From NCBI GenBank assembly GCA_963692915.1, contig OY843584.1:1216001-1280000 (forward strand): a stretch of DNA of 64,000 nt, in the 5' to 3' direction. A model generated the notes under the pieces. It was not told the DNA's origin, made no database searches, and was given only the letters and a program-made list of their open reading frames with translations. The first letter of the stretch is position 1. Every line of letters begins with the position of its first letter. The translations under genes and the position numbers were made by a program. Source of the stretch: Cenarchaeum sp. Its GTDB lineage: Archaea > Thermoproteota > Nitrososphaeria > Nitrososphaerales > Nitrosopumilaceae. Shown piece after piece: positions 7,827-37,840 of the stretch.

Positions 7827-7886
7827 GCGCGGTGCGTGCGCATGCCATATTTAACAAGAGCGGGCAATCGCGGCGCGTGGGGGCCA

Positions 7887-8575: not shown

Positions 8576-8593
8576 GCCAATAGGCGCTTTTCA

Positions 8594-21041: not shown

Positions 21042-22057
21042 TGCTCGCGCCTCCGGCCAAACTGCATCGGGCTTATTATCCCGTCACACTCGCTAGTCGC
21101 AAAGCAGAGGTTCTGCGTGCGCAGCTTGTCACATAGGGGGCACGAGTATTTTGTGCCGCCGTCAGCGCCCGATATGTTGTTGAGCTGGTATAGCGTAGTA
21201 CGCTCGTTATAGTCAGGTGCGCCCTTGAAGAGCGGCGCAATCTTTTCGACGTCCCATCCTCGCCCGAGGAGGAACGTAGCGAGCATAAAACGGCCAGAGT
21301 GTGGCAGGTTCTCGCCGCGCTCGAGAACCTCGAGCGCGTGCTTTATGCAGGGCGGATGCTCGCCTGTGACTTTGACGTACTTTGGCTCAAGCGCCACTGT
21401 GAGCTCCTTTATGCGCGCAACCGGGGCCTCAAAGTTTGGAAGCATCGGCGCTGTCGGACCCTGGCGTATGCGCTCAACTATATGGTCTGCGAGCTCTTGG
21501 CGGACGAGGCGGACCACCTGGTGTGCCGTAAGTCGAACCATTCCGCCGTCGATCTTGCGGTTGACGAGCTTCCACTCGCGCTCGTTAAAGTTCACCGAAC
21601 GTGTGACATAGCTCGGGACAGGAATCGTGTATCCGAACTCATCACGCCTCACCTCGACTGAAAAGAGCTCGGCGAGCATTCTTGCCGGCATGTCCCTGCT
21701 GCGCGACTCGCGCCCGAGACTTCCCTCTAGGAACTTTTCGGCACGGCGCGATTCGGAGAGCGCAAACCTCCGAACAAGCGATCTCGCACCAGAGATCTTT
21801 AGAATTACCACTGCAAGGAGAAAGGAAAAGACCTCCCTGTCTAGAATGCGCGGATCCGTCGTCGTCGAGTCGAGCTCTGAAGAGTAGACGAGGCCATCGG
21901 CAGCAGCCTCTATTCGGCGCATTGCGCGCTCGACATATGGCATATAGTCAGAATCTCTCCCGAGATCGTCTATCGTAAAGCCCTTTGATGCCATGTACTT
22001 GCCAGCATCCTCTAGGAACGGATACATCGCATACTCTTGCGTGCCAATTCCCTCCAT
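21038..22057 (-). CDS. priL: DNA primase large subunit
   Basis: YPFL, WKLVNR, PPCIKH, NLPHSGRFMLATFL, APDYNE..TLYQ, YSCPLC. Confidence 0.95.
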   Translation of the reverse strand: MEGIGTQEYAMYPFLEDAGKYMASKGFTIDDLGRDSDYMPYVERAMRRIEAAADGLVYSSELDSTTTDPRILDREVFSFLLAVVILKISGARSLVRRFALSESRRAEKFLEGSLGRESRSRDMPARMLAELFSVEVRRDEFGYTIPVPSYVTRSVNFNEREWKLVNRKIDGGMVRLTAHQVVRLVRQELADHIVERIRQGPTAPMLPNFEAPVARIKELTVALEPKYVKVTGEHPPCIKHALEVLERGENLPHSGRFMLATFLLGRGWDVEKIAPLFKGAPDYNERTTLYQLNNISGADGGTKYSCPLCDKLRTQNLCFATSECDGIISPMQFGRRREQ

Positions 22058-22151
22058 GGCATCGCGGCGAGGCGCGGTTTTACTTAAAGGTCTAGCGCGA
22101 AAATCCTCTTGAACAGTGTCAACAGGCAAGGGTAGCAGGACAAGGATTGTC

Positions 22152-22433
22152 CTATGCGTGAATCTCCAGCTGTGTCATGTCGAATCCCCTGACGAGGCGC
22201 CATTCCATTCCCTCGTGGATAGTAGGCTCGACGGGCACCTCAACTGGCTCTATCATGCCAATCCTCTTGGCCTCGGCAATCACGTCCCACGCCTCTTTCT
22301 CGGAGAGCGAACCCACAATCCGCGTTATGATCTCTGCCGACGGTGCAGAGCCGCAGTATTGGAGAATATTGGCAATGAGCCTCAGATCATCACGCCATGC
22401 CGGATTCATTGGAAACCCGTACAATAATGACAT
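22152..22433 (-). CDS. Hypothetical protein, possibly wHTH-like
   Basis: Short ORF in a lower-GC patch between priL and nfo; no recognised motif. Confidence 0.35.
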   Translation of the reverse strand: MSLLYGFPMNPAWRDDLRLIANILQYCGSAPSAEIITRIVGSLSEKEAWDVIAEAKRIGMIEPVEVPVEPTIHEGMEWRLVRGFDMTQLEIHA

Positions 22434-22767
22434 TATTAAGCGTGTGCGACATGGATAAAAACAGGCACATGAACTAGCACTCCACGACGTTGCTTGAAAA
22501 AATGGATCACAGAATACGCCAGAGCCTATGGGCACTGCTTGTTGGACTCTTGTCCGTCGTGTCGGTTCCCATAATCATTGTTGCAGGACACATTAGCTCA
22601 ATTCTCGCCTAGAGAGACAACTCGCGCACGTGCAGAAACATGCCATGCCGATTACGTCTGCGCAGCATGGCGCACACGCGAGCAGGAGTGCCCATTCTGC
22701 GGCACCCGCAGGCGCGCGCCGTGGTGAGCGCACCTTTAAGTGGGCTCCCCTGTGGGGTGCGCGCACA

Positions 22768-23610
22768 ATGGCTCAGATAGGCTGCCATGTCTCGATAGCC
22801 GGAGGAATCGGCAACGCGCCCGGCTATGCGGCCGAGCGCGCGTGTGCGGCGTTCCAGGTGTTTACGCGCAACCCGCGCGGATGGGCCGCAAAGGACCTCG
22901 ACGCCGAGGCGATAGGCTTGTACAAGGCCAACTTAGAGTCATCTGGTATCGTCGCCGAGGACACGTGCGCGCACATGCCATACCTGCCAAACCTCGCCTC
23001 GACAAAGCCTGACGGGCACGCAAAGTCAGTCGCCGCGCTAGTCGAGGAGGTAAAGCGCTGCGGCAAGCTCGGCATACCATACCTCGTCACGCACCTAGGC
23101 AGCCACCTCGGAGCCGGCGAGGAGGCCGGAATAAAGCAGCTCGTCATCGCGTACAAAAAGGCCGCGACCGTAAAGAACGGCGTGACGATACTCCTCGAGA
23201 ACACGGCAGGCCAAAAGAACTCGGTCGGCTCGGACTTTGCGCAGCTCGGCGACATCCTGGGCCAGCTAACCCCGTCTGACAGGTTTGGTGTCTGCATCGA
23301 CACGTGCCACGCGTTTGCGTACGGATATGACCTACGCACAGAAAAGGGCGTGCGCGACACGTTTGCGCTGCTCGATGAGAGCGTCGGGAAGGGCAGCCTA
23401 AAGATACTCCACCTCAATGACGCAAAGGCGGGCCTGGGCTCAAACCTCGACAGGCACCACCACATCGGCCTCGGCGAGATAGGCAAGGCCGGCATGCGGG
23501 CCACGGTCAGGATCGCCGCAAGGCGCCACGTGCCCATAATACTCGAAACGCCAATAGACTCGGTTCGCGATGACTATGAGAACGTCAGGGTGGCCAAGTC
23601 CCTTGTATAG
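22768..23610 (+). CDS. nfo: Endonuclease IV
   Basis: IGCHVSIAGG, HMPYLPNL, LLENTAG, CIDTCHAF, HLNDAK, DRHHHIG, ILETP. Confidence 0.96.
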   Translation: MAQIGCHVSIAGGIGNAPGYAAERACAAFQVFTRNPRGWAAKDLDAEAIGLYKANLESSGIVAEDTCAHMPYLPNLASTKPDGHAKSVAALVEEVKRCGKLGIPYLVTHLGSHLGAGEEAGIKQLVIAYKKAATVKNGVTILLENTAGQKNSVGSDFAQLGDILGQLTPSDRFGVCIDTCHAFAYGYDLRTEKGVRDTFALLDESVGKGSLKILHLNDAKAGLGSNLDRHHHIGLGEIGKAGMRATVRIAARRHVPIILETPIDSVRDDYENVRVAKSLV

Positions 23611-23642
23611 GAATTTAGCACAGTGTGTCTGGAGCGCGCGCA

Positions 23643-25124
23643 ATGGACTATGACAGCGTGATGAACCTGGCCCTCGAGCGCGGGTTTTACTTTCCCAGCG
23701 GGGGCGCGTATGCCGATGCGCAGGCCGGCTTTTGGGAGTATGGGCCCAACGGCGTGGGCCTAAAGTCCAGGTTTATCGAGCTCTGGCGGCGCTCGCTTGT
23801 GAGGCGCGCGCAGATGATCGAGATAGACGGCTCGCAGATCATGCCGCCCTCTGTGTTCGAGTCCTCCGGCCACCTTGCGAGCTTTTCAGACCCTGTCATA
23901 CAGTGCACTGCGTGCTCGGCGACGTACCGCGCCGACAAGCTCCTCGAAGGCGATGACGCGCTGCACGAGGGCTCTGAGCCCTCTGAGATCGACGCCGCGG
24001 TGGCCAGTAGAGGAGTGGCATGTCCAGGATGCGGCGGTGCGCTCGGCCCGTCGCGCAGGTTTAACATGATGTTTGGCCTCGGCATAGGCCCCGGTGCCGA
24101 GCCGGCGTACCTGCGGCCCGAGACGTGCCAGTCGATATTTGTCGACTTTCCGCGCATATACAAGACGATGAGGGGTCGCCTCCCGCTCGGCATCGCGCAG
24201 ATAGGCAAGAGCTTTCGAAACGAGATAGCGCCGCGCCAGAGCCTCCTACGACTGCGCGAGTTCTACCAGGCCGAGATCGAGGTGTTCTGCAACCCAAACA
24301 GGCTAGATGACGTTGCAGCCTTTGACGAGGTAGCCGACACGACCATACGCATACATGACGGCGAGGTGACCGAAAAGATGACGTGCGCACAGGCCGTCGA
24401 GTCTGGCGTGATCGCAAACCGCACGATCGCATACTATGTCGGCCTTCTCTCCGAGTTTTACGCAAGGACGGGAATTGACATGGAGCGCACGCGCTTTCGC
24501 CGGCTCTCCGGCACCGAAAAGGCGTTCTATGCGACTACGGCCCTTGACTTTGAGGCCGAGGTCTCAACGGGATGGCTCGAGCTAGTCGCGTGCAACTATC
24601 GGGCCGACTATGACCTAAAGGGCCACGCAAAGGGATCGGGTGAAAAGTTTGAGGTCATGGACGGCGAGGAGAAGGTTCTCCCGCACGTCTTTGAGATATC
24701 GATGGGAATAGACCGTAGCCTCTACACGATACTCGAGCACTCGTTGCGCAAGGACACCGAGAACGACCGGACAGTCCTCTCGCTGAGGCCGCACATGGCG
24801 CCGATCCAGGTCGGCGTACTCTCGCTCGTGAAAAAGGACGGCCTCGCCGAGAGAACCAACGAGGTGTACAGGTCTATTCGTGAGGACTATGCGGCATTCC
24901 TTGACCACTCTGGCGCCATCGGCCGGCGCTACCGCAGGCTTGATGAGGCCGGTGCGCCGCTAGCCGTCACCGTAGACCACCAGACCCTAGAGGACGGGAC
25001 CGTGACGCTACGAAGGCGCGACTCGATGGCCCAGGAGCGCATCACCGTCGCGGAGCTCGGAGCCGTAATCGGCGCCGAGGTCGCGTTTCCGGCCTCGCGC
25101 GGGGCTCCACGCGTAGAAAACTAA
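23643..25124 (+). CDS. glyS: Glycyl-tRNA synthetase (alpha2 type)
   Basis: YLRPETCQSIF, QIGKSFRNEIAPRQSLLRLREF, IGRRYRRLDEAG. Confidence 0.97.
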   Translation: MDYDSVMNLALERGFYFPSGGAYADAQAGFWEYGPNGVGLKSRFIELWRRSLVRRAQMIEIDGSQIMPPSVFESSGHLASFSDPVIQCTACSATYRADKLLEGDDALHEGSEPSEIDAAVASRGVACPGCGGALGPSRRFNMMFGLGIGPGAEPAYLRPETCQSIFVDFPRIYKTMRGRLPLGIAQIGKSFRNEIAPRQSLLRLREFYQAEIEVFCNPNRLDDVAAFDEVADTTIRIHDGEVTEKMTCAQAVESGVIANRTIAYYVGLLSEFYARTGIDMERTRFRRLSGTEKAFYATTALDFEAEVSTGWLELVACNYRADYDLKGHAKGSGEKFEVMDGEEKVLPHVFEISMGIDRSLYTILEHSLRKDTENDRTVLSLRPHMAPIQVGVLSLVKKDGLAERTNEVYRSIREDYAAFLDHSGAIGRRYRRLDEAGAPLAVTVDHQTLEDGTVTLRRRDSMAQERITVAELGAVIGAEVAFPASRGAPRVEN

Positions 25125-25151
25125 TAAGCAAACGCCTGTGAGGCGCCGCCC

Positions 25152-26306
25152 ATGGGAAGCGCGGGGGCGCCGCAGGGCACGCAGGTCTCGATAATCATAC
25201 CCACATACAACGAGGCCCCAAACATCGTGGGCATGCTGCGCTCGATACGCGAGCACGTCTCGAGGGTCGCGCGCGTCGAGGCCATAGTGGTAGATGACGG
25301 CTCGCCAGACGGCACGGCCGGCATAGTCAGGGACTATATCCGCGGCGAGGCAAAGGCCGAGGGGTATAGCGTCGACATTGTGCAGAGGCAGCAGAAAAAG
25401 GCAGGCCTGAGCTCGGCCATACTCCACGGCGTGAGGCGCGCGGCCGGAAGCGTCATCGTCGTAATGGACAGCGACTTTTCGCACCCCCCGCACGTCATAC
25501 CGAGGATGCTAGAGGCGCTGCGCCAGCAATGCGACATTGTTGTGGCCTCGAGGTACATGGGTGATGGCGGCGTCGTGGGCTGGCCGCTGCGCCGGCGCAT
25601 CGTAAGCAGGATCGCCACGATGATTGCCAGAGTCGGCCTCGGCGTCGAGCAGTCAGACCCAATGTCCGGATTCTTTGCGTTTCGGAGCAGCGTAATGCGT
25701 GGCCTTGACCTAGATGCGATCGGCTACAAGCTTCTCCTCGAGGTTCTCGTAAAGGCCAGGGGAGCTCGCATAAAGGAGATACCATACACGTTCACCGACA
25801 GGGCCGCAGGCTCGAGCAAGCTTGGGGCGCGCACAGTCATTGACTATATGCGATCCGTGTGGAGACTCTATCGCGGCGGCGCGAGGCGCGAGAGGCGCGC
25901 GTCAGTCAGGTTTGCCTCAAAGGCCGCACGCTTTTACACCGTCGGCGCACTGGGTCTTGGCATCAACTGGCTAGTCTCGATGCTCTTTGCCGGCGGCGGC
26001 GGGCTCTGGTACATACACGCCAACATTGCCGGAATTGCCGCATCGGTAATGACAAACTTTGTCCTGAACAAGAGGTGGACGTTTGAGGATGACGACTTTG
26101 GCGTGCGCAGGACGCTCTCGCAGGGGGCTCGCTTTGCGGCAATAAGCTCGCTTGGCGCAGCCGTCCAGCTCGGAGCCGTCTATATGCTAGTCGAGCAGTA
26201 CGGCATGCCCCACGGAGGAGCACTCGTCATCGCCGTCGCGGCAGCCTCGCTTGGCAACTTTGTCCTAAACAAGACGCTCACCTTTAGGGAGCGCCTGTGG
26301 TCCTAG
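25152..26306 (+). CDS. Polyprenol-phosphate mannosyltransferase (GT2, DPM1-like) with GtrA domain
   Basis: IIPTYNE, VDDGSPDGT, MDSDFSHPP, DPMSGFF; C-terminal NFVLNKRWTF. Confidence 0.92.
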   Translation: MGSAGAPQGTQVSIIIPTYNEAPNIVGMLRSIREHVSRVARVEAIVVDDGSPDGTAGIVRDYIRGEAKAEGYSVDIVQRQQKKAGLSSAILHGVRRAAGSVIVVMDSDFSHPPHVIPRMLEALRQQCDIVVASRYMGDGGVVGWPLRRRIVSRIATMIARVGLGVEQSDPMSGFFAFRSSVMRGLDLDAIGYKLLLEVLVKARGARIKEIPYTFTDRAAGSSKLGARTVIDYMRSVWRLYRGGARRERRASVRFASKAARFYTVGALGLGINWLVSMLFAGGGGLWYIHANIAGIAASVMTNFVLNKRWTFEDDDFGVRRTLSQGARFAAISSLGAAVQLGAVYMLVEQYGMPHGGALVIAVAAASLGNFVLNKTLTFRERLWS

Positions 26307-26620
26307 CGCCGGCGAATGCGACGGTACACGCGAATGGCCAGACGAGCGATGTTGTCGTCATAGCCGAGCCTGTCAAACACGCGGCGCAGCACATAGAGGC
26401 GCACAAATGACGCGGCCGTAAAGACGGCCGTGATCGCCGCGTTGGCCACTAGTGGATCCTCCTGCATCCAGCCCGTCGTGGCCGGCAGAACCGCGATGCC
26501 CACGGCATAGCCGACAGGGTATCCCCCAAACGTGTTGACGAGCGCCTCAGAAAGGCTCTTTGAGCGCGTGTCATGCTTTGTGGCGTCTGGCCCCATGTGC
26601 GCATCGGCGCCGGTGCCCAC
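26303..26620 (-). CDS. Small membrane hypothetical protein
   Basis: SKSLSEALVNTFGGY...SFVRLYVLRRVF, two hydrophobic helices. Confidence 0.65.
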   Translation of the reverse strand: MGTGADAHMGPDATKHDTRSKSLSEALVNTFGGYPVGYAVGIAVLPATTGWMQEDPLVANAAITAVFTAASFVRLYVLRRVFDRLGYDDNIARLAIRVYRRIRRR

Positions 26621-26806
26621 GCTATAAGCCTGCGCACGGCAGGGTCGCGCCTCCCGCTAGCCGGCGGCGCTTGCTGGTCAGGCGATACGTCCAGTCCGGC
26701 CCGTGGTCGACACGACCCGAGTCCGCGTCCAAAAATACGCCGACTCTGCCGTGCTTGACATGTATTCCAAACCAGACTTATATTAGATTACCCATCCGTC
26801 TGCGGC

Positions 26807-27622
26807 ATGGCTCAGACCGCCATGCACGGCAACCTGCTCTCGTACAAGCTATACACGAGGCCAAAGGCGCAGGCTGCCTATGGGCATGGCCACACAAAAA
26901 CCGCGCGGCAGCGCAACGCGCAGCACATACTCGGCGTTTTAGCCGAGAACGGCATGTGCTCGACGTGGGAGATGGCCAAGGTGAGGATGTTAAACGACCT
27001 CGAGGGCACCAGAGAGAAGGAGAAGGACTTTCGGCGCATCATCAGCGGAAGGCGCGATCGCGGGAGACACTCACCTGGCATGTCCGAGTCAGGCCTCATC
27101 ACATCCGAGCTCGTCGGCAACTCGCGAAAGTACCGCCTCACGCCCCACGGCATTCTCTACTGCATCGACTCGCTGCGCATGAGCGACGCGCAGATCGACA
27201 TGATGGCCGCTGCGTACGTCGATGTGCTTCCCAGGGTCTTTGGACGGTGGGAACACCTCAAGGAGACGCTCGGCGATGGCGCGTATAGGATACGCACCCT
27301 TGCGTGTGGCCTCCTTTTGGACAATCCGGCGATTCGGCGCGATGCGACTAGCCCGATATACGAGCTAATGTCATACATACAGCTAAAGTACCACCGGAGC
27401 TTTGAGGTGATGCGCGAGGAGAGTCTCGCCGAACAGGTGGCGTACTGGTACTATACGTGCATCCTGTACGACTCGGCACCGAGCGCAAAACGCGCAAGTA
27501 GGCGCCTGCGCATGCTGCGAGAGGCACTCGGTGACATGCATGCGTGGTACTCGGAGTTTGTAAAAGAGGCCGACGCGCACTATCGCCAGAGGGCACACGC
27601 GATAGGCGCTGCCGGAATATAG
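26807..27622 (+). CDS. Hypothetical protein with probable N-terminal wHTH
   Basis: CSTWEMAK...YRLTPHGILY; TTATATT about 30 nt upstream. Confidence 0.7.
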   Translation: MAQTAMHGNLLSYKLYTRPKAQAAYGHGHTKTARQRNAQHILGVLAENGMCSTWEMAKVRMLNDLEGTREKEKDFRRIISGRRDRGRHSPGMSESGLITSELVGNSRKYRLTPHGILYCIDSLRMSDAQIDMMAAAYVDVLPRVFGRWEHLKETLGDGAYRIRTLACGLLLDNPAIRRDATSPIYELMSYIQLKYHRSFEVMREESLAEQVAYWYYTCILYDSAPSAKRASRRLRMLREALGDMHAWYSEFVKEADAHYRQRAHAIGAAGI

Positions 27623-27624
27623 CA

Positions 27625-27987
27625 TCAGCGCGCGTGCTTTGCTATAGCCGACTCTAGATCCTTGAGGAGGAGCGGCTTGTTGAGGAGCGCACAGAGTCCC
27701 TGCGACTGTGCGCCCTTGTAGCGCTCGCCGTCTAGCGCATAGCTTGACGTGAACACGACACGCGCATCAGAATCTTCTTTGCGTATTCGCTCAAATGCCT
27801 CATAGCCGTCAATGCCGGGCATCTTTATGTCAAGGAACGTGATGTCAGGCACCTCCTCGCGGTGCATCTCGACGGCATTGTTCCCGTCTGTGGCCGTGAG
27901 GACATTATACCCGCAGTCCATGAGCATGAGCTGCGAGGACTCCAAAAAGTCAGTATCGTCGTCTACAAAGAGTATCTTTTTGGACAT
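27625..27987 (-). CDS. Stand-alone response regulator receiver (CheY-like)
   Basis: ILFVDDD, PDITFLDIKMPGIDG, LNKP; start taken at ATG 27987, not the ORF-track 28230. Confidence 0.9.
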   Translation of the reverse strand: MSKKILFVDDDTDFLESSQLMLMDCGYNVLTATDGNNAVEMHREEVPDITFLDIKMPGIDGYEAFERIRKEDSDARVVFTSSYALDGERYKGAQSQGLCALLNKPLLLKDLESAIAKHAR

Positions 27988-28159
27988 CCTGACTGCCCAC
28001 GGCTGCAGGCGCGGCGCGTTAAGTGTGTTGCGTGGGCGGGCAGTGCATGATGCCGGGAGGCCGGCGATCCCCGGCGGCAAGGACACGCGTGCGCCACGTT
28101 TGGCGCTGCGCGCGGCTAGGACGTCTCTCCTCTCCATCTCGAGCTTTTCCCGCAGCCTA

Positions 28160-28312
28160 ACGCTATCGCGCCACAACTCGTCCTTTCCCTGCCGCGCTGT
28201 GCCCCCATGTGCGCGCCACCACTTGCCCATACCCCGGCAGGCATCGCTGCGGTAAATGGATAGGCGGGATCACGCCCATTTAACCAAGAGCAGCAAGAGT
28301 GCCGATTCCATT
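28160..28312 (-). mobile_element. Decayed end of an IS66-like element, homologous to 46680-46812
   Basis: gcggtaaatggataggcgggatcacgcccatttaaccaagag (28249) aligns with gcggtaaatggatcggcaggatcgcgcctatttgaccaaaag (46748); similarity continues on both sides. Confidence 0.6.
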
Positions 28313-28319
28313 GTCAATT

Positions 28320-28447
28320 CGCTATTCAGCTTAAATAAACCCACGGGGAAGCGGCGTGCGATGCCCGACACGGTGGTAGTCAGAGGATCTTATGACGAAG
28401 GCAATCTTGTCTTGTACCCGGTCGTGCATGATTTGCCATTACTCATC
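28320..28447 (+). pseudogene. Degenerate duplicate of the purA promoter and first ~32 codons
   Basis: 23-bp identity with 31799-31821; MPDTVVVRGSYDEGNLVLYPVVHDLPLLI vs PurA MPSTVIVGGFYGDEGKGKLVSYLATHDSPSLI. Confidence 0.85.
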
Positions 28448-28482
28448 TCAATATGCGAAATTAGGCTATTGGAGGTGGATAT

Positions 28483-31400
28483 ATGATGAATGAACTTTTT
28501 TCGGCAAAAACAGTCAAGAAATTTTGTGAAAAAATTGAATTAACTGCAGAACAAAAGAAATCAGCAGATGAGTGGTGTAAACTACTTGAAAATAACGAAT
28601 TAGAGGATGAAGTGTCCAATTATCCAAAATTTATGCAGATAATTCTTGCAGATATACTTGGATATTCTATTAAAGGACTTAGTTTTGAAGAGTCTCATAT
28701 TGAATTTGCGCACAAGAAAGATGAAGAAAAGATAATGTGCATTGAAGTAAAAGGAACATCAGTCAAAGACGTATTTGCGTTACAGCACAGAAAAAAAGAA
28801 CACTCGACCCCCATAAAACAACTGTGGGACTATATGGGGAGTGATAATAATTTAAAATATGGAATATGTACTAATTACAGGCATTTTGTGTTAATCACTA
28901 AAAAATTAGGATATACAAAATATCATATGTTCAATTTCGAATCAGTTCGAAATGATGAAAATAAATTAAAAGAATTCATAGGCATTTTTTCAAAAAAACG
29001 TATTGATGGGGGGTTTATAGAACAGATACAGTTAGAAACAGATAATGAAGAGAAAGACCTCACAGAAGAATTTTATGAATTGTACGGTAAAACTAGACTA
29101 ATGTTAATAGAAGAATTCAAATCAAAAGGAATCAACACACCAGATGCAGTTAATGTTGCTCAAACATTTCTGAATAGAATGATTTTTGTATTTTTTGCTG
29201 AAGATTGTAGATTAATTGATGACAAAGACATGTTTTCAGATAACGTTGTAGATATACTTCATGCAAATCTTGGCGACACCACAAAAAGAATTTGGTCATA
29301 TATTGTCAAAGAGCTTTTTGTTTATTTTGATAAAGGATCAGATGATCCTCTAGTTTTTGGGTTCAATGGCGGCCTGTTTCAAGATCCAATTCCAGATAAA
29401 ATATTCATAAGAGATAAACAAAACAAAGATTTTTTCAAAAAAATTGAATCAAAAACCCAATACGCAACACGACAGTCATGGGAATTTAAGACAAAAATAG
29501 AAAAAGCTGTCAAGCGACACAGAAACCTAAATCCAATTATTAAAAATCTTTTAAAGCTATCTTCGTATGATTTTGAAAGCCAGGTACGAGTAAACATACT
29601 TGGACATATTTTTGAAAATTCCATATCAGAATTAGAAGGGTTATTACAATCACCGGATCTAAACATAAAACCGCGACGCAAACGTGAGGGGGTGTTCTAT
29701 ACTCCAGAATACATAACAAAGTACATATGTACAAATACAATAATTCCATATTTGTCAAAATCAAACACAAATGATATACACAATTTGATTATAGAATATG
29801 AAGGTGAGATAGAAAATTTAGAAAAAAAGCTACGCAGTATAAAAATACTGGATCCATCTTGTGGTTCTGGAGCATTTTTAATAGAAGCCGCCAATATATT
29901 GATCGAAGTGCATGACAAGATTCGACAATACAAGTTGGCCCATAATTTAATAGATGATAACGTATTAGAAAAATCAATTAATGATGTGAAAATAAGAACA
30001 GTCGTGCAAGATAACTTGTACGGAATTGATATTAATTTTCAATCAGTTGAAATTACAAAACTTTCGTTATTTTTAATGACGGCATCCCGTCAAGAAAAAC
30101 TTCAAAATTTATCGAAGAACATAATTGTTGGCAATAGTGTCATAAACAATAAAGTTTTCAATTGGAAGATCGCATTTCCTGAAATAGATAGCTTTGACAT
30201 AATTATTGGCAATCCCCCATATGTCAGACAAGAAGATTTAAAAGATCATAAAGCTGATATGCAGATACCAATGTCAAACACATTAAAATTAAGGAATAAA
30301 TTTAGCATACCTAGTACTAGCGACCTAAGCAGTTATTTTTATTATCATTCTTTAAATTATCTTAAAAGTGGAGGCAAGTTAGGATTCATAACTAGTGATA
30401 GCTGGTTACATTGGAATTATGGAAAATCATTACAAAAATGTCTGTTAGACAATAGTGAATTGAATATACTAATGCGCACGAATTTCAATGTTTTTGATGA
30501 TGCAGATGTTAAAACTATCACAACAGTGTTAACAAAATCCACCAAGCATGGGAATACTGTAGATATAATCAATGTTGACAGCAAAGACGAATTATTGCAA
30601 GTGCCAGATGCTTCATCAAAACACATGTTGCAGGAAGAATTCAATAGTGACAATTGGAATTTATATTTTACAGATCCATTACCTAGTCCCAAGGTTCCCA
30701 TGATTAAGATGGAAGAGGTAGGAGAGATCAGGATGGGGAGGAAAACTGGAAATAACGATTTTTTTATTATAGATAAACTAACGATCAAAAAATTTGCCAT
30801 TAATAAAAAATACTATAGGCCAATAATCCCAGACAATATTAAGAATGGTTCTTTGGATAATATTCGTGCAAATAAATATTTGTTATACGTCAACGATTCA
30901 AAAAGAGTATTAAAACAAACAAAAAATGGAAAATGTGTTTTAAAATACATTGAAGATAACAACATAGAGATCATGCCCAAAAAAGGTACAAATGAAAAGC
31001 TCTGCAGGGTGTCAGAATTACGATCAGTGAGAAGCCATAAACCTTACTGGTATTCATTAAAACTGAATAAACCTACACCCATATTGCTTGCTCGATTTGC
31101 AAATGAACGTATGAAAATATATGAAAACAGCGGAGAGTTTTACGCATCAGATAATTATGCAGAATTCACACCGGAAGATTCTGAACACGTTAGTGCGTAT
31201 TTAGCATTTCTCACATCATCTTGGTTTTCATTATTCTTAGAAAAACATGGCCACACAGCAGGCGGCAATGCACTGCAATTTAAAACTGGAGATTATGTAA
31301 ATGCGCCTGTTCCAGATTTCAAAAAAATTAAAGAAACGAATCAGAAAGGCAAAAATAAAACAAAAATAAAACAGCTAAAAGATGCGTGGAATTGTTTTAA

Positions 31401-31530
31401 AGAAGACTATGATCAAGCAGCTCTTGACAATGTTGTGTTAAACGTGCTGGGGTTTAACAAAAATGAGATAAATGCCATATTAGCAGATCTCGACAAGTCT
31501 GTGCGACGTAGAATTCAAGCAACTCCATGA
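28483..31530 (+). CDS. Type IIG/Eco57I-like fused restriction endonuclease-N6 adenine methyltransferase
   Basis: N-terminal IEF...IEVKG...QLWDY...ICTN; FLNRMIFVFFAED; GFNGGLF; LGHIFE; GVFYTP; motif I ILDPSCGSGAFL; motif IV IIGNPPYV; far more AT-rich than its flanks. Confidence 0.9.
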   Translation: MMNELFSAKTVKKFCEKIELTAEQKKSADEWCKLLENNELEDEVSNYPKFMQIILADILGYSIKGLSFEESHIEFAHKKDEEKIMCIEVKGTSVKDVFALQHRKKEHSTPIKQLWDYMGSDNNLKYGICTNYRHFVLITKKLGYTKYHMFNFESVRNDENKLKEFIGIFSKKRIDGGFIEQIQLETDNEEKDLTEEFYELYGKTRLMLIEEFKSKGINTPDAVNVAQTFLNRMIFVFFAEDCRLIDDKDMFSDNVVDILHANLGDTTKRIWSYIVKELFVYFDKGSDDPLVFGFNGGLFQDPIPDKIFIRDKQNKDFFKKIESKTQYATRQSWEFKTKIEKAVKRHRNLNPIIKNLLKLSSYDFESQVRVNILGHIFENSISELEGLLQSPDLNIKPRRKREGVFYTPEYITKYICTNTIIPYLSKSNTNDIHNLIIEYEGEIENLEKKLRSIKILDPSCGSGAFLIEAANILIEVHDKIRQYKLAHNLIDDNVLEKSINDVKIRTVVQDNLYGIDINFQSVEITKLSLFLMTASRQEKLQNLSKNIIVGNSVINNKVFNWKIAFPEIDSFDIIIGNPPYVRQEDLKDHKADMQIPMSNTLKLRNKFSIPSTSDLSSYFYYHSLNYLKSGGKLGFITSDSWLHWNYGKSLQKCLLDNSELNILMRTNFNVFDDADVKTITTVLTKSTKHGNTVDIINVDSKDELLQVPDASSKHMLQEEFNSDNWNLYFTDPLPSPKVPMIKMEEVGEIRMGRKTGNNDFFIIDKLTIKKFAINKKYYRPIIPDNIKNGSLDNIRANKYLLYVNDSKRVLKQTKNGKCVLKYIEDNNIEIMPKKGTNEKLCRVSELRSVRSHKPYWYSLKLNKPTPILLARFANERMKIYENSGEFYASDNYAEFTPEDSEHVSAYLAFLTSSWFSLFLEKHGHTAGGNALQFKTGDYVNAPVPDFKKIKETNQKGKNKTKIKQLKDAWNCFKEDYDQAALDNVVLNVLGFNKNEINAILADLDKSVRRRIQATP

Positions 31531-31798
31531 TGGTCAGCAAATGCTTGCGATGGCATGCGCGCACCAATGTGCGAAAGGCGGCATTGTGCCTCAACGGAAT
31601 AAGCCACGGTACGAATGGGTTCCGAGAGCCATCACGCACGGGGGCGCAATATCCACGTTCCCACAAGAGGTCAGACCCAGCACCATTTCTGCTGAGGGGC
31701 GCTCTTGCGACACTCGCTTGTAATGACACGATTACTAAGAAGACGTAGGCGAGCCCTGCGTGGCTGCAGTGGAGCCTGGGAGGGAACCGCCCACGGCG

Positions 31799-31821
31799 CG
31801 CTATTCAGCTTAAATAAACCC
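31799..31821 (+). repeat. Right copy of the 23-bp direct repeat, containing the purA TATA box (TTAAATAA)
   Basis: cgctattcagcttaaataaaccc, identical at 28320-28342. Confidence 0.9.
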
Positions 31822-31840
31822 GTGACCGCAGCGGCGCGCG

Positions 31841-32848
31841 ATGCCCTCTACGGTGATAGTCGGTGGATTTTACGGTGATGAGGGCAAGGGCAAGCTCGTC
31901 TCGTACCTGGCCACACATGACTCGCCGTCGCTCATCGTGAGGGGCGGAGCCGGCCCCAACGCGGGCCACACGATAATCGACGAAGGCAAGACGTGCAAGG
32001 TTCGCATGATCCCGTGCGGCTTTGTCAACAGGGAGACGCGCCTCGGGATAGGTCCCGGCGTGGTAGTCGACCCCGACGTCCTCCTGCGCGAGGTTCGCGA
32101 GTTTGGCGCCGAGGGCAGGGTCGTCGTGGACTCGCGATGCGGTGTGATCGACGCGTCGCACCGCGAGGCCGACGCCGGAGGCCACCTGGCCGGCAAGATA
32201 GGCAGCACGGGGTCAGGAACCGGACCGGCCAACGCCGAGCGCGCAATGCGCACGCTTCGACTGGCGCGCGACGAGCCCCGCCTAGAGGGCATCACCGGCG
32301 ATGTTCCCCTGGAGCTCAACTCGGCGCTAGATGAGGGCAGAGACGTCCTCGTCGAGGGCACGCAGGGGACGTTTCTCTCGCTCTGGCACGGGACATACCC
32401 CTTTGTCACCTCAAAGGACGTCACGGCTGCCGGCATATGCGCCGACGTCGGACTCGGGCCAAAACGCGTGGATGAGGTCATCGTCGCCTTCAAGGCGTAC
32501 GTCACGCGTGTCGGATCCGGACCCCTCGAGGGCGAGCTTGGGGCCGAGGAGGCAAAGTCGCGCGGTTGGGCCGAGTTTGGCGCAGTCACGGGCAGGCCAC
32601 GCAGGGCCGCCGAGTTTGACCATGCGCTAGCCAGGCGTGCAGTCATGCTCAACGGCGCCACGCAGCTTGCCATCACAAAGCTCGACGTCGTCTTTCCCGA
32701 GTGCGCAGGCGTGAGCTCGTGGGATGGCCTCGCGCCCGAGGCGCGCGCATTCGTCGAGGGAATCGAGTCCTCCCTAGGCGTGCGCGTCACGCTCATGGGC
32801 ACGGGTCCGGGCGCAGGCGATATCGTGGATCGTAGGGCTCACGCCTGA
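31841..32848 (+). CDS. purA: Adenylosuccinate synthetase
   Basis: GDEGKGK, GPNAGHT, EGTQG, YPFVTSKD, YVTRVG.GP, GAVTGRPRR, ITKLD. Confidence 0.97.
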   Translation: MPSTVIVGGFYGDEGKGKLVSYLATHDSPSLIVRGGAGPNAGHTIIDEGKTCKVRMIPCGFVNRETRLGIGPGVVVDPDVLLREVREFGAEGRVVVDSRCGVIDASHREADAGGHLAGKIGSTGSGTGPANAERAMRTLRLARDEPRLEGITGDVPLELNSALDEGRDVLVEGTQGTFLSLWHGTYPFVTSKDVTAAGICADVGLGPKRVDEVIVAFKAYVTRVGSGPLEGELGAEEAKSRGWAEFGAVTGRPRRAAEFDHALARRAVMLNGATQLAITKLDVVFPECAGVSSWDGLAPEARAFVEGIESSLGVRVTLMGTGPGAGDIVDRRAHA

Positions 32849-32888
32849 CAGGGTAGGTTTAATTTGTCGCAATCTGCCATGCGCACGC

Positions 32889-33572
32889 ATGGCCACAACG
32901 GCGAATGAGACGGACACAAAGCCACGCTATATCGAGGTTAGCTCACATCTCGAGTTCTCACGCATGGTCTGCGCGCTAGAGCGCGTGCCGCGAACCGTCT
33001 TTATGCACGAGCATGACGGCGCACAGGTTCTCTCTGTCCAGATGGACATACTCAACGAAAAACCCGTCATATACTATGTGCAGGCCGACAGAGGCGGCCA
33101 GTACATCTCGTACGGCATACGCGGCAACCGTGAAGAGTCGACCATGACGGACTCGGTCAGCGAGACTGGACGCATCTACTCGCCCATAGTCGGCATAAAG
33201 TCGCTCCCAAACAACCTTCGCGCAGGCAATGGGACTGCAGACAAGTACTTTCCGCTCGAGCTAGACGACCTGTCTAGCCTCGCAAAGCTGAGCTATGGCT
33301 TTGAGGACACGCCGTTTCCGCTCTTTGCGTTTCCGGCCAACGGCAAATGGCTAGTCGGCGTGTTCATGAACTTTAACGAGGACGGCCCATCGTACTTTTG
33401 CCATGTGGCCATGGACTCCGAGCCGGCAAAGCCATTCCTAAAGTACGCGACGTCCAACGGTTCAAAGCCCGAGCTCGTCGATGCGCCAAGTGACCACGGC
33501 TACTCGTACATCAAGATAATACGCCTAAAGGACACACACCCGCTAGTTGACTATGCGCAGCTTCAAAACTAG
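32889..33572 (+). CDS. Hypothetical protein
   Basis: 227-aa ORF with host-like codon usage and TTTAAT upstream. Confidence 0.75.
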   Translation: MATTANETDTKPRYIEVSSHLEFSRMVCALERVPRTVFMHEHDGAQVLSVQMDILNEKPVIYYVQADRGGQYISYGIRGNREESTMTDSVSETGRIYSPIVGIKSLPNNLRAGNGTADKYFPLELDDLSSLAKLSYGFEDTPFPLFAFPANGKWLVGVFMNFNEDGPSYFCHVAMDSEPAKPFLKYATSNGSKPELVDAPSDHGYSYIKIIRLKDTHPLVDYAQLQN

Positions 33573-34284
33573 GATGCGCGAGGCCGCGCGCGCAGCCGGT
33601 CCCCTTGTCCTTGCAGCAGATATCGTCGGTTCGCCCTCGCGAACCGTTGCGCGCATACAGGCCGCAACAAGACGCGTCGAGGGCAGCGCGTGTGCGATAA
33701 AGCTAAACATGCACGCGCTCCTCCCGCTAGGTGCAGCCGATGTTCGCGACATTGCGCGAACGGCTCACTCGCTAGGCATGCAGGCAATAGCAGACATAAA
33801 GCTCAACGACATTCCGGCTACAAACGAGGCTGCAGCATCGGCCCTCTGGTCAATGGGCATCGACGCGCTGATCGCAAATCCGGTCATGGGTCCGGCGAGC
33901 CTCGCGGCCCTTGCACGCGCGGCGCGGCGAGGGGGGCATGGCGTCATTGCGCTGGGTCACATGAGCGCGCCGGAGGCGCGCGCGACGTACGAGGCACGCA
34001 TCTCGCCTTCGCGACGCCTGTATCACGACTTTGTGCGTAGCGCCGCGCGCGCAGGCGTCGACGGGATCGTCGTTGGCGCGACATATCCGCGGATAATATC
34101 CGAGTGTGCGCGAATTGCGCGCGGCGTGCCGATATACTCTCCGGGCATCGGAGCCCAGGGCGGCAGCGCGCAGCGTGCGGCATCGGCCGGTACAGACTAT
34201 TTCATCGTGGGTCGCTCAATCCTGCAAGCGCGTGACGCGCGAGCCGAGGCCGCGCGCGTCTGCGCCCTCGTCAGCGCAGAGTAG
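33553..34284 (+). CDS. pyrF: Orotidine-5'-phosphate decarboxylase
   Basis: LVLAAD, IADIKLNDIPATN, VVGAT, SPGIGAQGG, IVGRSI. Confidence 0.93.
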   Translation: MRSFKTRMREAARAAGPLVLAADIVGSPSRTVARIQAATRRVEGSACAIKLNMHALLPLGAADVRDIARTAHSLGMQAIADIKLNDIPATNEAAASALWSMGIDALIANPVMGPASLAALARAARRGGHGVIALGHMSAPEARATYEARISPSRRLYHDFVRSAARAGVDGIVVGATYPRIISECARIARGVPIYSPGIGAQGGSAQRAASAGTDYFIVGRSILQARDARAEAARVCALVSAE

Positions 34285-34686
34285 GCGGTTTGCAGCCTCA
34301 AGGACACCGCGCGCATTCTCGTACGTGAGCGTATCCATCGCCTGCCCGTACTCTTCCCACGCGTGCGCCCTGTGCTCGTGTGAGAGGCGCACGCTCGAGG
34401 TGTTCGTGCGCGCAAGAAAGAACGAGACCCTCTTGCGTATAAAAACACCTTCGTGCATAAAGTTGTAGCGTATATCTTTTTGAAACCCCTCGACGAACTC
34501 GATATCTGATATTCCCGTCTCCTCGAGCGTCTCGCGCACGACGGTCTGACGATCGTCCTCACCGGCCTCAATCTTGCCCTTGACAAAGTCCCAGTGGTTT
34601 GTGGGATACAGGAGGAGCAAAAAGCGGCGCGCATCGCCATCCCCCGTGAATATGACTGCGCCTGCGGATCTCTGCGTTACTGCCAT
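34216..34686 (-). CDS. Nudix hydrolase (Ap4A hydrolase-like)
   Basis: HWDFVKGKIEAGEDDRQTVVRETLEETGI; LSHEH. Confidence 0.9.
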   Translation of the reverse strand: MAVTQRSAGAVIFTGDGDARRFLLLLYPTNHWDFVKGKIEAGEDDRQTVVRETLEETGISDIEFVEGFQKDIRYNFMHEGVFIRKRVSFFLARTNTSSVRLSHEHRAHAWEEYGQAMDTLTYENARGVLEAANRLLCADEGADARGLGSRVTRLQD

Positions 34687-34689
34687 TGC

Positions 34690-35478
34690 CTATCTCCCCC
34701 CTCGACGCTCACGGCTCTGGAATGTCCGTATCGCTCGCATCAGGTCTATCTTGCGAAACTCGGGCCAGAGTATGTCCATAAAGACTAGCTCGCTGTATGC
34801 GCTCTGCCATAGGAGAAAGCCGCTAAGCCTGCGCTCACCGGACGTGCGAAGGACGAGATCAGGTGCTGACTGCGGGAGGTGCGACGTGTAAAGGTTGGAC
34901 TCGATAACAGACTTGTCGATCGACGACGCATCAACGCTTCCGTCATCCACCCCGCGCGCTATCTTTTTGACCGCATCGACGAGCTCGTCCTGGCCGCCGT
35001 ATGCCAGCGCAATGTTGAGAAAGCGCCGATCGTATCCACGTGTGGCCTTTTCGAGCTTGTCGAGTGTGCGCGTGATCGACTCGGGCAGGAGGTCAAGCCT
35101 GCCCATTCCCGTGACGCGCATGCGGCGTCGGTGAAGGCGCGAGTCGCCAAGGAGCTTTTCTAGACGAGCGCCGATCAGCGTAAAGAGCTCGTCGACCTCC
35201 GAGTCGCCGCGGTCGAGGTTCTCGACTGAGAGCGCATAGAGCGTGATTATGCGGATGCCGAGCTCCTCGCACCAGTCAAGGAGGCGCTCGACGGCGTCTG
35301 CACCCATGCCGTGCGCATCGCCAGTGTGCGCATTTTTTTCCTTGGCCCACCGCCTGTTGCCGTCAAGTATGAGCGCAATGTGGCCGGGCATCGGCCTTTG
35401 GCTAATCTCGCGCTCGAGCCGCCGCGCGTAGAGGCCGTACAGGCCTCCTGCCCGCAGGAGCACATCCCTTAATGTCAA
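34690..35478 (-). CDS. uppS: cis-prenyltransferase (polyprenyl diphosphate synthase)
   Basis: HIALILDGNRRWA, YALSVEN, AYGGQDE, RTSGERRLSGFLLWQSAYSE. Confidence 0.96.
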   Translation of the reverse strand: MTLRDVLLRAGGLYGLYARRLEREISQRPMPGHIALILDGNRRWAKEKNAHTGDAHGMGADAVERLLDWCEELGIRIITLYALSVENLDRGDSEVDELFTLIGARLEKLLGDSRLHRRRMRVTGMGRLDLLPESITRTLDKLEKATRGYDRRFLNIALAYGGQDELVDAVKKIARGVDDGSVDASSIDKSVIESNLYTSHLPQSAPDLVLRTSGERRLSGFLLWQSAYSELVFMDILWPEFRKIDLMRAIRTFQSRERRGGR

Positions 35479-35717
35479 CGCGTGCGCGTATGGACGGCAG
35501 TATTATGTGCCTTTGCGGTGACTGGTGGACGCTCATAAAGCCGATAGTGCGCCCTAGAAGGGCATGGGCGCCTCTGGCATGCCCAGGGCATGGATTCCAG
35601 GAATGGTGGACTGCCGATGTGTTTGTCCGGATGACAAAGCCCCATGTTCAGGACGCCGGAGCCACACATGCGCCTAGGCAGCTATTGTAATATTAGAGGC
35701 AATGCGCGGGCTGTCCA

Positions 35718-36545
35718 ATGACAGCAGCAAGCATGCAAGAGGCACGTCAGCAAGAGTTGTCAGACATGAAAAGGCCGATTGAGACGAATAGCATTTATCA
35801 CGGCGACTGCATGGATGTAATGAAGGCCATTCCCGATGAGACAATAGGCACAATAGTCACATCACCCCCATACAACATCAAAAATTCCACAGGGAACGGG
35901 CTAAAAAATTCGAACGGCGGCAAGTGGCCCAATGCCGCACTTCAGAACGGGTATGTGGAGCACAATGACTCGATGTCACACCAGGAATACGTGGGATGGC
36001 AGCGTGAATGCATTTCCGAGATGATGCGCGTTTTAAAGCAGGACGGGGTGATCTTTTACAACCACAAGTGGCGCGTGCAAAATGGAATAATGCAGGGTCG
36101 AGAGGAGATCATAAGGGATTTTCCAGTCAGGCAGATAATAATTTGGCAGAGAGATGGAGGAATAAACTTCAATCCCGGGTATTTTTTGCCCACGTATGAG
36201 GTGATCTATATGATCACAAAACCAAAATTCAAGCTAGTACCCAAGGCAAACAAGATTGGAGACGTGTGGAGAATATCCCAAGAGAGGAACAATCCCCACC
36301 CGGCTCCATTTCCCGTACAGCTGGCGAAAAATTGCATACTTGCCACGGACAATGGGATCGTGATGGATCCATTTTTGGGATCAGGGACGACAGCTATTGC
36401 GGCAAAGACATGTGATCGCGAGTGGATCGGAATTGAGCAATCAAGAGAGTATTGCACGCTAGCAAAACGGAGAATTGGAGAAACATCAACCATAAAACAA
36501 GCATCGTCCAAAGAAATCAACATAATCACGTTGGGAGAAGGTTAA
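35718..36545 (+). CDS. Orphan beta-class N4-C/N6-A DNA methyltransferase
   Basis: VTSPPY precedes HPAPFP and DPFLGSGTT; lower GC than flanks. Confidence 0.92.
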   Translation: MTAASMQEARQQELSDMKRPIETNSIYHGDCMDVMKAIPDETIGTIVTSPPYNIKNSTGNGLKNSNGGKWPNAALQNGYVEHNDSMSHQEYVGWQRECISEMMRVLKQDGVIFYNHKWRVQNGIMQGREEIIRDFPVRQIIIWQRDGGINFNPGYFLPTYEVIYMITKPKFKLVPKANKIGDVWRISQERNNPHPAPFPVQLAKNCILATDNGIVMDPFLGSGTTAIAAKTCDREWIGIEQSREYCTLAKRRIGETSTIKQASSKEINIITLGEG

Positions 36546-36694
36546 GGCGCGGAGCGAATGGGATGCATATTGGTCAGTGCAAGAGCCCGTATCACATAAC
36601 CCGGTAGGCCATGTTCATAGATCTCTCGATCCCGTCGAACAGCCGTGATGCCCCGGTCAGAAGCAGGATGCGCCCGCGTACGCTAGGCGCCGCA

Positions 36695-37840
36695 CTATGT
36701 GCTCTCAACGGTGGTCTCGGCGCCGTCGTCGTGCTGCCTTTTGTAGCGCCTAAAGAGCACAAAGGCCGCAGCTAGCGTGACGCCTAGGCCGGCTAGGAGC
36801 GGGGGGACGAGCGTAAACTCGCTCTCGCCGTTGGCAAGTATGCTCGTAAACTGGGCTAGCGTCGGATAGATCGCGGCGAGGGCGATGATCCGCAAGATGT
36901 CGCCGATCTCGCGGCGCGCGCCAGCAAAGAGGTGGCTGAGCATCATGCCTCCCAGCATGACGCCGATCCCTATCCAGAGTATCGGCAGAGCGCCGGCCAT
37001 GAACTGCCCTGCTGAGACGCGATCCACGATAATGCTGCCAAGCTCGGCACCCTCGACAGGGTCCACAGTCGATATGCCCGCCGGAATCGAGGCGATCATC
37101 AGGACTATGCCGGTGACCATCGTGAAGAGGCGCACGAGTGCTGCGGGTTCGGGTTTTGTCCAGTTGATCCACGCCTTGTCTATGTCAAACGCGCGCGTTA
37201 TTAGCGCGCCGGCGAGTATGATGACGAGAACCGAGACTATCTCCGTGGCGTATCCGAGAACAGTCGCGATGCCCCCTATGAGGAGGAGCACGCCGGGCAC
37301 GCCAAGAAAGAACTTTGAGTAGCGCGCATCATACATTACCATCTTTAGGTACTTGCCAAACACTGCATACGAGTGCTCGATCGTGTGGCTCACCTTCATC
37401 ACGACGCGCTGCACGGACACCACGGGCACGAGGTTCTGTATTACGGGAATGACGGCCTCGTCGTCTTCCCCGTCAGAGACGATTACGGCTCCCGTTGCCG
37501 AGAACTTTTCTAGAACGGCGCGAGTCTCGGCGACTATCTTTTCATCAGCACGCAGACCGCGCCGGCTCTCGCCGGCAATGACTGTGACCTCGGCACTGTA
37601 CCCGCGGCTCACGAGATCCTCGTATGACTTTATCGCTGAAAAGATCGCATTAGAGTCAGCATCCTCGGGATCCTCAAGCGCAAGGCGCTGTGCGGCCTCT
37701 AGGCACGCGTCACGGCCTACGACGGGCGTTTCGATTCCGGCCTTGTCGCCAATGTCATTGTCACGATCAACGCATATGACTAGTATCCTGCTCGACTCCG
37801 AGGCGCCCATCTTGCGCATCTTGTCCATCTCCTGTGTCAT
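36695..37840 (-). CDS. DUF373 family membrane protein
   Basis: LVICVDRDNDIG, DPEDADSNAIF, VSDGEDDE, C-terminal TM helices. Confidence 0.9.
   Translation of the reverse strand: MTQEMDKMRKMGASESSRILVICVDRDNDIGDKAGIETPVVGRDACLEAAQRLALEDPEDADSNAIFSAIKSYEDLVSRGYSAEVTVIAGESRRGLRADEKIVAETRAVLEKFSATGAVIVSDGEDDEAVIPVIQNLVPVVSVQRVVMKVSHTIEHSYAVFGKYLKMVMYDARYSKFFLGVPGVLLLIGGIATVLGYATEIVSVLVIILAGALITRAFDIDKAWINWTKPEPAALVRLFTMVTGIVLMIASIPAGISTVDPVEGAELGSIIVDRVSAGQFMAGALPILWIGIGVMLGGMMLSHLFAGARREIGDILRIIALAAIYPTLAQFTSILANGESEFTLVPPLLAGLGVTLAAAFVLFRRYKRQHDDGAETTVEST

Follow-up and report, generated by a model that had tools for sequence, protein, structure and literature searches.

A 64,000-nucleotide stretch of DNA from Cenarchaeum sp. 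(contig OY843584.1, positions 1,216,001 to 1,280,000; hereafter, the window) carries a single-gene Type IIG restriction-modification (RM) system directly before purA, the gene for adenylosuccinate synthetase, and the RM gene has a copy of the purA start region on either side. We moderately favor the reading that the RM gene entered this position by "insertion with long target duplication" and that the upstream copy of the purA start most likely acts as the RM promoter. In this scenario, a target of ~139 bp, comprising the B recognition element (BRE)/TATA core of the purA promoter, a spacer and 32 codons, would have come to flank a 3.35-kb insert that has no mobility gene, with the downstream copy keeping purA and its promoter intact and the upstream copy keeping a 23-bp core. 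That is, purA stays intact because the duplication spans both the promoter and the start of the gene.

The locus is an insertion because the corresponding site is empty in the nearest relatives, the Cenarchaeum metagenome-assembled genomes (MAGs) L001 and L002 (purA 97% and 81% identical at the protein level, respectively). These were the only two close relatives among the 80 loci, all from Nitrosopumilaceae, that were recovered by a purA protein scan of one genome per species. Window positions 22152-28127 are colinear with L001 3940-9918 and positions 31796-35601 with L001 9956-13762, at 92-94% identity (the comparison covers 21 kb around purA, and the RM gene may occur elsewhere in L001); L002 is colinear likewise, and its site is empty too. 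Only a short spacer with one promoter copy lies between the response-regulator gene and purA in either relative, and the extra DNA of the window amounts to ~3.63 kb (28172-31798). Further, both repeats of the window align to the single copy at L001 9959-10038, the left one at 83.75% identity over 80 bp and the right side at 96% over its first 100 bp. A first-pass annotation of the window, made from its letters alone, had called the RM gene an insertion that comparison of the locus across relatives should reveal, and the empty sites bear this out.

The RM gene (28483-31530, plus strand) is compositionally foreign, AT-rich DNA in a GC-rich Cenarchaeum-type archaeon. Its open reading frame (ORF) has a GC content of 0.32 (0.27 at third codon positions), vs. 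0.47-0.67 for the remaining 64 listed ORFs and ~0.61 for the host; GC content per kb ranges between 0.53 and 0.69 outside 28001-32000, and all four of the 64 one-kb bins that fall below 0.5 lie within these bounds. The insert proper (28449-31798; 3350 bp) has this fused R-M gene as its sole gene. A Pfam scan of the 20 ORFs between 21038 and 37840 turned up neither integrase nor transposase domains, and the nearest tRNA gene is ~22 kb or more away. The annotation had likewise described an AT-rich RM gene bracketed by two purA starts, with no integrase at the locus, and both statements agree with the composition, the repeat alignment and the domain search.

The duplication itself is confirmed. 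The 23-mer CGCTATTCAGCTTAAATAAACCC occurs exactly at 28320-28342 and 31799-31821, and a 14-mer taken from it matches, with up to one mismatch, these two sites only in the 64 kb (0 expected based on 100 shuffles). The TATA box TTAAATAAA lies inside this BRE/TATA core, at 28331-28339 in the left copy and 31810-31818 in the right copy. Homology extends to 28448 and 31937, respectively, such that the left copy (T'; 28320-28448, plus strand) measures 129 bp and consists of the core, a spacer and relic purA codons from the ATG at 28361, and the right copy (T; 31799-31937, plus strand) measures 139 bp and consists of the functional core promoter of purA and the first 32 purA codons before running into the rest of the gene. 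As a whole, purA (31841-32848, plus strand) encodes an intact protein of 335 aa (Pfam Adenylsucc_synt, 1e-78) with 97% amino acid identity to that of L001, and the right copy is colinear with L001 from 31796 on, at 94.5% identity. Past the 23-mer, 76 of 106 aligned columns are identical (72%), and identity is flat along this diverged part (14-16 of 21 columns per block), with one 9-bp in-frame gap and one 1-bp gap in the left copy. This alignment upholds the earlier observation that the 23 bp around the TATA box are identical and the following ~100 bp of the left copy have diverged. The left copy is no longer purA because its P-loop, GDEGKGK, has been lost through the 9-bp deletion and substitutions. 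What is left is a relic ORF of 41 codons (28361-28486, plus strand; beginning MPDTVVVRGSYDEGN), the TGA of which (28484-28486) overlaps the ATG of the RM gene (28483-28485) in the form ATGA. A Shine-Dalgarno sequence, GGAGGTG (28471-28477), is located 5 nt upstream of the RM ATG, in an AT-rich foreign leader of 34 bp (28449-28482, plus strand; GC 0.38); the annotated stop-start overlap and GGAGGTG motif are thus both present in the sequence.

The RM gene appears to encode an intact enzyme of the MmeI/Eco57I-like Type IIG/IIL kind and an ordinary member of a very large family, judging from sequence motifs and a predicted fold. Its single chain of 1015 aa (1014 aa with a start at 28486) matched the Pfam families Eco57I (6.6e-34), N6_Mtase (5.3e-16), MmeI_Mtase and MmeI_hel, and its best PADLOC match was REase_MTase_IIG (E 3.3e-55), with MTase_II over residues 455-1000. 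In an alignment of the window protein with 16 relatives, the gamma-class N6-adenine methyltransferase motifs I (consensus xDPxCGSGxF; D457-P-x-C-G-S-G-A-F-L466; i.e., D457, P458 and C460-L466) and IV (N577-P-P-Y580) were invariant in all 17 sequences, and E69 and E88-x-K90 of an N-terminal PD-(D/E)XK-type motif, which we take to be catalytic by analogy, were kept in at least 90% of them. The AlphaFold model of the protein (pLDDT 81, pTM 0.73) gave full-length Foldseek matches to MmeI (5hr4; E 3.5e-20, 901 columns), BpuSI (3s1s) and DrdV (7lo5). Like these enzymes, the window protein would combine, in one chain, an N-terminal PD-(D/E)XK-like region, a helical spacer, a gamma-class N6-adenine methyltransferase and a C-terminal recognition part; in contrast to them, it is assigned from sequence and predicted fold, with only 11-16% sequence identity to the solved enzymes, and a sequence search of the PDB with the RM protein returned weak methyltransferase matches only. 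A C-terminal target-recognition domain is indicated both by the fold matches to the methyltransferase-plus-recognition enzymes CamA and M.BseCI (~640-670 columns, target TM-score 0.68-0.76) and by the span of the MTase_II match. An enzyme of this type would be expected to cut at a set distance from an asymmetric site and to place m6A on a single strand. The Type IIG identity proposed in the first-pass annotation holds.

With respect to where the gene came from, 7824 of 8000 scored candidates were RM relatives; the best non-self one (P0002) was 82% identical, and the close named matches were from Thaumarchaeota (e.g., P0007, 61%). The composition of the gene appears to match that of free-living, AT-rich Nitrosopumilaceae. 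RM relatives were also found in phage (42) and plasmid (324) records, all at <60% identity (23-31% for the 20 listed), which provides no lead to a phage or plasmid vector.

How the gene is expressed can be framed from the duplicated core. All 23 positions of the left promoter core match, vs. 72% in the remainder of the copy, a contrast with a chance probability of 4.8e-4 pointwise and of ~0.015 if a run of this kind may fall anywhere along the alignment; among 15 purA starts aligned from across the family, 14 have TTAAATA. The ATG of host genes in the window is typically preceded by a TATA-like box at ~28-31 nt, without a Shine-Dalgarno site. TTAAATAAA lies 31 nt upstream of the purA ATG (31841), the spacing of leaderless genes, and 30 nt upstream of the relic ATG. 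Thaumarchaeota were of the leaderless type in 11 of 11 genomes in the part of the survey considered here, which also notes that, in leaderless-type archaeal genomes, the ribosome-binding-site model is derived for genes that are not leaderless (PMC6028130). The RM start was the only one among 63 ORF starts examined with an anti-Shine-Dalgarno match of at least 6 nt, and no run of five or more Ts occurs between the left promoter copy and the RM start. Hence, it is plausible that the left purA core was co-opted as the RM promoter. A leaderless transcript would start near 28360 from this core, the 41-codon relic ORF would be translated up to the ATGA on the RM start codon, and the RM start would be served by re-initiation or by the strong Shine-Dalgarno site. 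Transcripts of the RM gene may also read through segment e, the 268 bp (31531-31798; GC 0.59) between the RM stop and the right promoter copy, into purA, since this tail has no T-run terminator (no run of five or more Ts). The suggested tie of the RM gene to purine regulation is speculation.

Alternatively, the left copy might be a functionless by-product of the insertion, with the RM gene having its own promoter in the last 35-60 bp before its start (e.g., the weak AATAT at ~28450-28454, 31 nt before the ATG) and the 23-bp identity reflecting a short tract of gene conversion or chance rather than selection. Differences between the relic ORF and purA amount to 4, 9 and 11 of 29 at the three codon positions, so that the relic ORF shows no purA-like constraint, and a search of the protein collection with the left ORF (76-aa form) returned, among relatives of 41-133 aa, only the window's own entry. 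Moreover, L001 and L002 differ at 7 of the 23 promoter positions, yet all of these are identical in the left copy, which fits conversion better than selection on the TATA box alone, and the Shine-Dalgarno site and the ATG lie in the foreign 34 bp. On the other hand, a strong Shine-Dalgarno site before the RM start argues for initiation within a longer transcript rather than at a leaderless 5' end, no good TATA match occurs in 28380-28482, and the step from 23/23 to a flat 71% is unlikely to have arisen by chance. We consider a functionless left copy unlikely, albeit deserving of serious attention.

A more far-reaching version of promoter reuse can also be formulated. That is, the duplicated purA core may have been kept by selection for longer than the time since the window/L001 split, as the expression module of a foreign defence gene that lacked a promoter; long target duplication might then be a general archaeal route by which an incoming gene acquires a leaderless promoter together with a coupling ORF, restriction would follow the promoter of purine biosynthesis, and the locus would be the first archaeal case. 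We advance this proposition as doubtful, and if it were true, long target duplication would generally equip incoming archaeal genes with a native leaderless promoter.

Insertion of RM genes with long target duplication was reportedly described by Nobusato and colleagues in 2000 (Gene 259:99). In the parts of the study by Furuta et al. (2010) considered here, RM genes that lie within long direct repeats aligning to one empty-site copy, with no mobility gene, form a described class, delimited by the presence of R and M in the insert, an insert of <20 kb, a duplication of >30 bp and the absence of a mobility gene (PMC2853133). The same parts report that the repeats often span the translation start and spare the target gene, that there are Type IIG cases as well as fusions of the 5' part of the target to RM genes, and that no archaeal RM system passed the screen (PMC2853133). 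The window locus corresponds to this class, with R and M inside an insert of 3350 bp, repeats of 129 and 139 bp and no mobility gene, and shares with it direct repeats of a length well beyond that of transposon target duplications, the alignment of both repeats to a single empty-site copy and a duplication that spans the translation start of a surviving target gene. It differs in its archaeal host, in repeats that are 72% identical outside the 23-bp core vs. >90% in the rows of the table of that study considered here, in the 148 bp that lie between the left repeat and the flank, and in a duplication that includes a core promoter, apparently reused, whereas the word "promoter" does not occur in the main text of that study. 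The layout is already known from bacteria, and the archaeal host, the low repeat identity and the additional 148 bp are the departures from it. Our search of the full-text literature found no archaeal RM case of long target duplication, its sole archaeal match being a 55-bp duplication at an ISH2 element. The first-pass annotation had proposed that insertion at the purA 5' end restored purA and left a copy of its promoter behind; a duplication spanning the promoter and start is indeed present, but "restoration" is not needed, the layout being that of long target duplication.

A different possibility is that the locus is the remnant of a site-specific integrative element that targeted the purA 5' end, brought a replacement promoter and 5' end, and has since lost its integrase. 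Elements of the SXT/R391 family integrate in the 5' end of prfC and bring a replacement promoter and 5' coding end; they encode a tyrosine integrase, use a defined att site and are roughly 100 kb long. The window resembles them in having cargo at the 5' end of a housekeeping gene that is still functional, with a displaced copy of the start left behind, and in the exact 23-bp core direct repeats that flank this cargo; unlike these elements, however, it has a single cargo gene and lacks a recombinase. Within 21038-37840, neither an integrase nor any other recombinase is encoded, the homology reaches beyond the core on a single side (106 bp, at 72%), the 148-bp segment keeps the left core away from the chromosome arm and hence from the chromosome junction, the ends have no inverted repeats (best score 14 vs. 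a shuffle mean of 15), and an att-like duplication is seen at none of the 79 other purA loci. Such a remnant is, accordingly, very improbable. Nor does the locus look like a transposon or insertion sequence, with no transposase, no terminal inverted repeats and a junction repeat of only 3-5 bp (CGC/CGCGC).

Several points weigh against an insertion by simple long target duplication with reuse of the promoter. First, even for bacteria, the biochemistry behind long target duplication has yet to be established. Second, segment b, 148 bp of GC-rich extra DNA (28172-28319) with CGC at both edges, parts the left copy from the native upstream DNA; the simple model does not predict it, and a second small insertion or filler DNA is therefore needed. 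The 268-bp GC-rich segment e, similarly, has no explanation in the simple model. Third, the staying open of the 41-codon frame and the in-frame nature of the 9-bp gap are both within chance, and 13 runs of five or more Ts, possible archaeal terminators, occur inside the RM gene. Finally, the left copy shows about 2-3 times the divergence that an insertion postdating the split from L001 would predict, and of the 7 sites that distinguish the right copy from L001, it has the L001 state at 5 and that of the right copy at 2. The duplication, hence, seems to be no younger than the split from the relative with the empty site, because the private changes of the left copy exceed four-fold divergence and the left copy sides with L001 at 5 of these 7 sites.

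The two added segments, 28172-28319 and 31531-31798, were left out of the account in the first-pass annotation. Segment b is absent from L001 and L002, and 68 bp of it (28223-28290) recur at 46719-46789 with ~81% identity (score 64 vs. a shuffle maximum of 27). The repeat has the core GCGGTAAATGGAT...ATTT.ACCAA with TATA-like boxes on both strands, and its pattern occurs at these two sites in the window and at none of the 80 purA loci. A full-length repeat resembling a miniature inverted-repeat transposable element can be set aside, as only the 68-bp core is shared and the remainder scores at shuffle level. Tests for a structured or coding RNA in segment b were negative as well (no Rfam match at the gathering score, a fold z-score of +0.74 and no codon GC periodicity); the sole lenient Rfam match, fiv_FSE at 28266-28294, was at chance level (17.2 bits vs. 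a gathering score of 53, E 0.33). Segment e showed no similarity within the window or the 80 loci, no Rfam match, no codon periodicity and a fold z-score of -0.26, and we rejected its origin, through copying and later divergence, from either the upstream spacer or segment b (both strands score 18 vs. shuffle means of 18-19).

The junctions can be parsed in two ways. The native spacer U (27997-28171), which separates the insertion from the response-regulator gene (27625-27996, minus strand), ends in GCTATCGCGC at 28171; in L001, the order is U followed directly by T (GCTAGCGCGC then TATTCAGC). The right repeat is continuous with the chromosome and the left one is not, owing to the intervening 28172-28319, and once segment b and one CGC are removed, the left copy is arranged as in L001. 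The locus could thus be read either as a 3.35-kb insert within a target duplication of 139 bp, accompanied by a distinct insertion of 148 bp, or as a single 3.63-kb insertion at a CGCGC microhomology. Spacer U is 94-96% identical to L001 up to 28127, followed by ~50% identity with conserved length at 28128-28161 (vs. L001 9919-9950), and its final 10 nt match L001 at 9 of 10 positions, with equal spacing from GGCTAGG. This low-identity stretch of ~35 bp may represent either a small replaced patch or a recombination boundary.

With regard to ancestry, the left copy clearly descends from the purA lineage of the window and L001. It agrees with the window+L001 clade state at 23 of the 31 sites that separate this clade from L002, and it is identical to L001 at 109 of 161 columns and to the right copy at 106 of 161, vs. 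69-88 of 159-161 columns for 12 other loci. An origin from the purA of an AT-rich relative was rejected on these grounds, the left copy being closest to L001 and the right copy and its peptide keeping the clade-specific pattern LV.Y...HD.P.LI. Nonetheless, it carries private changes at 25 of 106 columns (17 GC-to-AT and 8 AT-to-GC), compared with 274 differences at 1648 four-fold sites in 10 genes between the window and L001, or ~0.09 per branch. For this reason the left copy, described in the first-pass annotation as decayed, is diverged as stated but is not a simple product of recent decay. The age problem has three candidate solutions: the island may be old and L001 may have lost it cleanly via recombination between the repeats, it may have formed in a sister lineage and then been imported, or unconstrained GC-rich DNA may decay here about twice as fast as four-fold sites.

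The second of these leads to a further alternative, namely that a sister lineage of Cenarchaeum, with the RM gene already joined behind a purA promoter, donated 28172-31796 as a whole, either through illegitimate or homology-guided recombination at a CGCGC microhomology a short way upstream of the resident promoter or as an allele through homologous recombination in the flanks; in this case, the left copy would be foreign. Each junction has CGCGC (28167-28171 and 31797-31801), of which L001 has a single copy, and one event would also account for segment b. In addition, the left copy split off no later than the window and L001 parted, has a long private branch and is ancestral at 5 of 6 sites that are derived in the right copy or L001 relative to L002, and identity to L001 falls abruptly, from ~95% to ~50%, at 28127/28128, as at a recombination boundary. 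However, the origin of the purA-RM junction is merely moved to an unseen donor that needs the same duplication, the donor locus was not found (no RM relative at any of the 80 purA loci), and the restoration of the L001 arrangement by removal of segment b and one CGC fits a local duplicate equally well. We deem the import of a pre-assembled cassette improbable, and continue to favor insertion at purA with duplication of its start.

It is also conceivable that the locus is an assembly artefact in which an AT-rich fragment from a co-occurring thaumarchaeon of the free-living type was misjoined, given that the composition changes sharply, exactly at the RM stop, and that the sequence probably comes from a metagenome-assembled genome. 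Misjoining, though, would give rise neither to a second purA start that is diverged and in frame nor to the ATGA overlap, and both sides are colinear with L001 for more than 5 kb, such that we give this option almost no credence.

If the insertion took place as proposed, it would extend the poorly understood, transposase-free movement of RM genes from bacteria to an archaeon, and it would provide a natural example of a gene of GC 0.32 in a genome of GC 0.61 that acquired a host promoter as it inserted. Restriction enzyme and methylase domains are enriched in sponge-associated Thaumarchaeota in comparison with relatives that are free-living, and the window comes from the same GC-rich, sponge-associated type of host; the portions of these studies considered here count domains and do not describe insertion sites or promoter duplication (PMC7848895, PMC6697440). 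The locus may show one concrete route of entry, and a possible mode of expression, for these RM-enriched archaea.

Turning to how common such events are before purA, the survey does not support the defence-cassette hotspot that the first-pass annotation had raised. An RM relative was found at none of the 80 loci and a duplicated purA start at none of 79, the lone match being one of 23 bp at 91% identity ~10 kb away in L009. The surroundings are conserved: the same 153-aa gene is placed divergently within 400 bp upstream of purA in 70 of the 79 loci with at least 700 bp of upstream sequence, and downstream purA, orf227, pyrF and uppS all occur in 72 of the 80 loci, the other 8 being short. Other DNA is wedged before purA at 3 of 79 loci only. 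These comprise an IS630-like DDE_3 transposase (L013, 8638-9621) and a DUF2196 + Schlafen AlbA_2 protein (L075, 9106-9894), each directly upstream of purA in a higher-GC genome, and ~3.2 kb between the 153-aa gene and purA in L034 (6768-9999), where 800-bp windows go down to a GC content of 0.25 (0.42 for the locus) and a 680-aa ORF (7394-9433, minus strand) has no Pfam or PADLOC family. PADLOC gave no match for five extra upstream ORFs (from L075, L034, L071, L003 and L043). Overall, across these loci, of which two come from close relatives, the region upstream of purA shows mild variability in higher-GC genomes, which may be symbionts, and is not a defence-cassette hotspot.

A few other features of the window deserve mention. 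The response-regulator gene can be read as a 201-aa ORF (27625-28230, minus strand) with the receiver domain at residues 86-196 and a 78-codon upstream extension into segment b; its true start is probably the ATG at 27996, as in L001 and L002. The second copy of the 68-bp repeat, at 46719-46789, is upstream of an 81-aa coiled-coil ORF (46427-46669, minus strand) that is located between the HMG-CoA reductase gene and hisG, matches no Pfam family above the cutoff and has a C-terminal part reading YYQNSNTPPPS...KRRK. Farther from the insertion, ~740 bp of L001 (3203-3940) are missing from the window at 22120-22152. Lastly, an N6_N4 DNA methyltransferase gene (35718-36545, plus strand) with a GC content of 0.47, lower than that of the host, had no nuclease gene in view next to it, and it is older than the RM island because L001 has it too.

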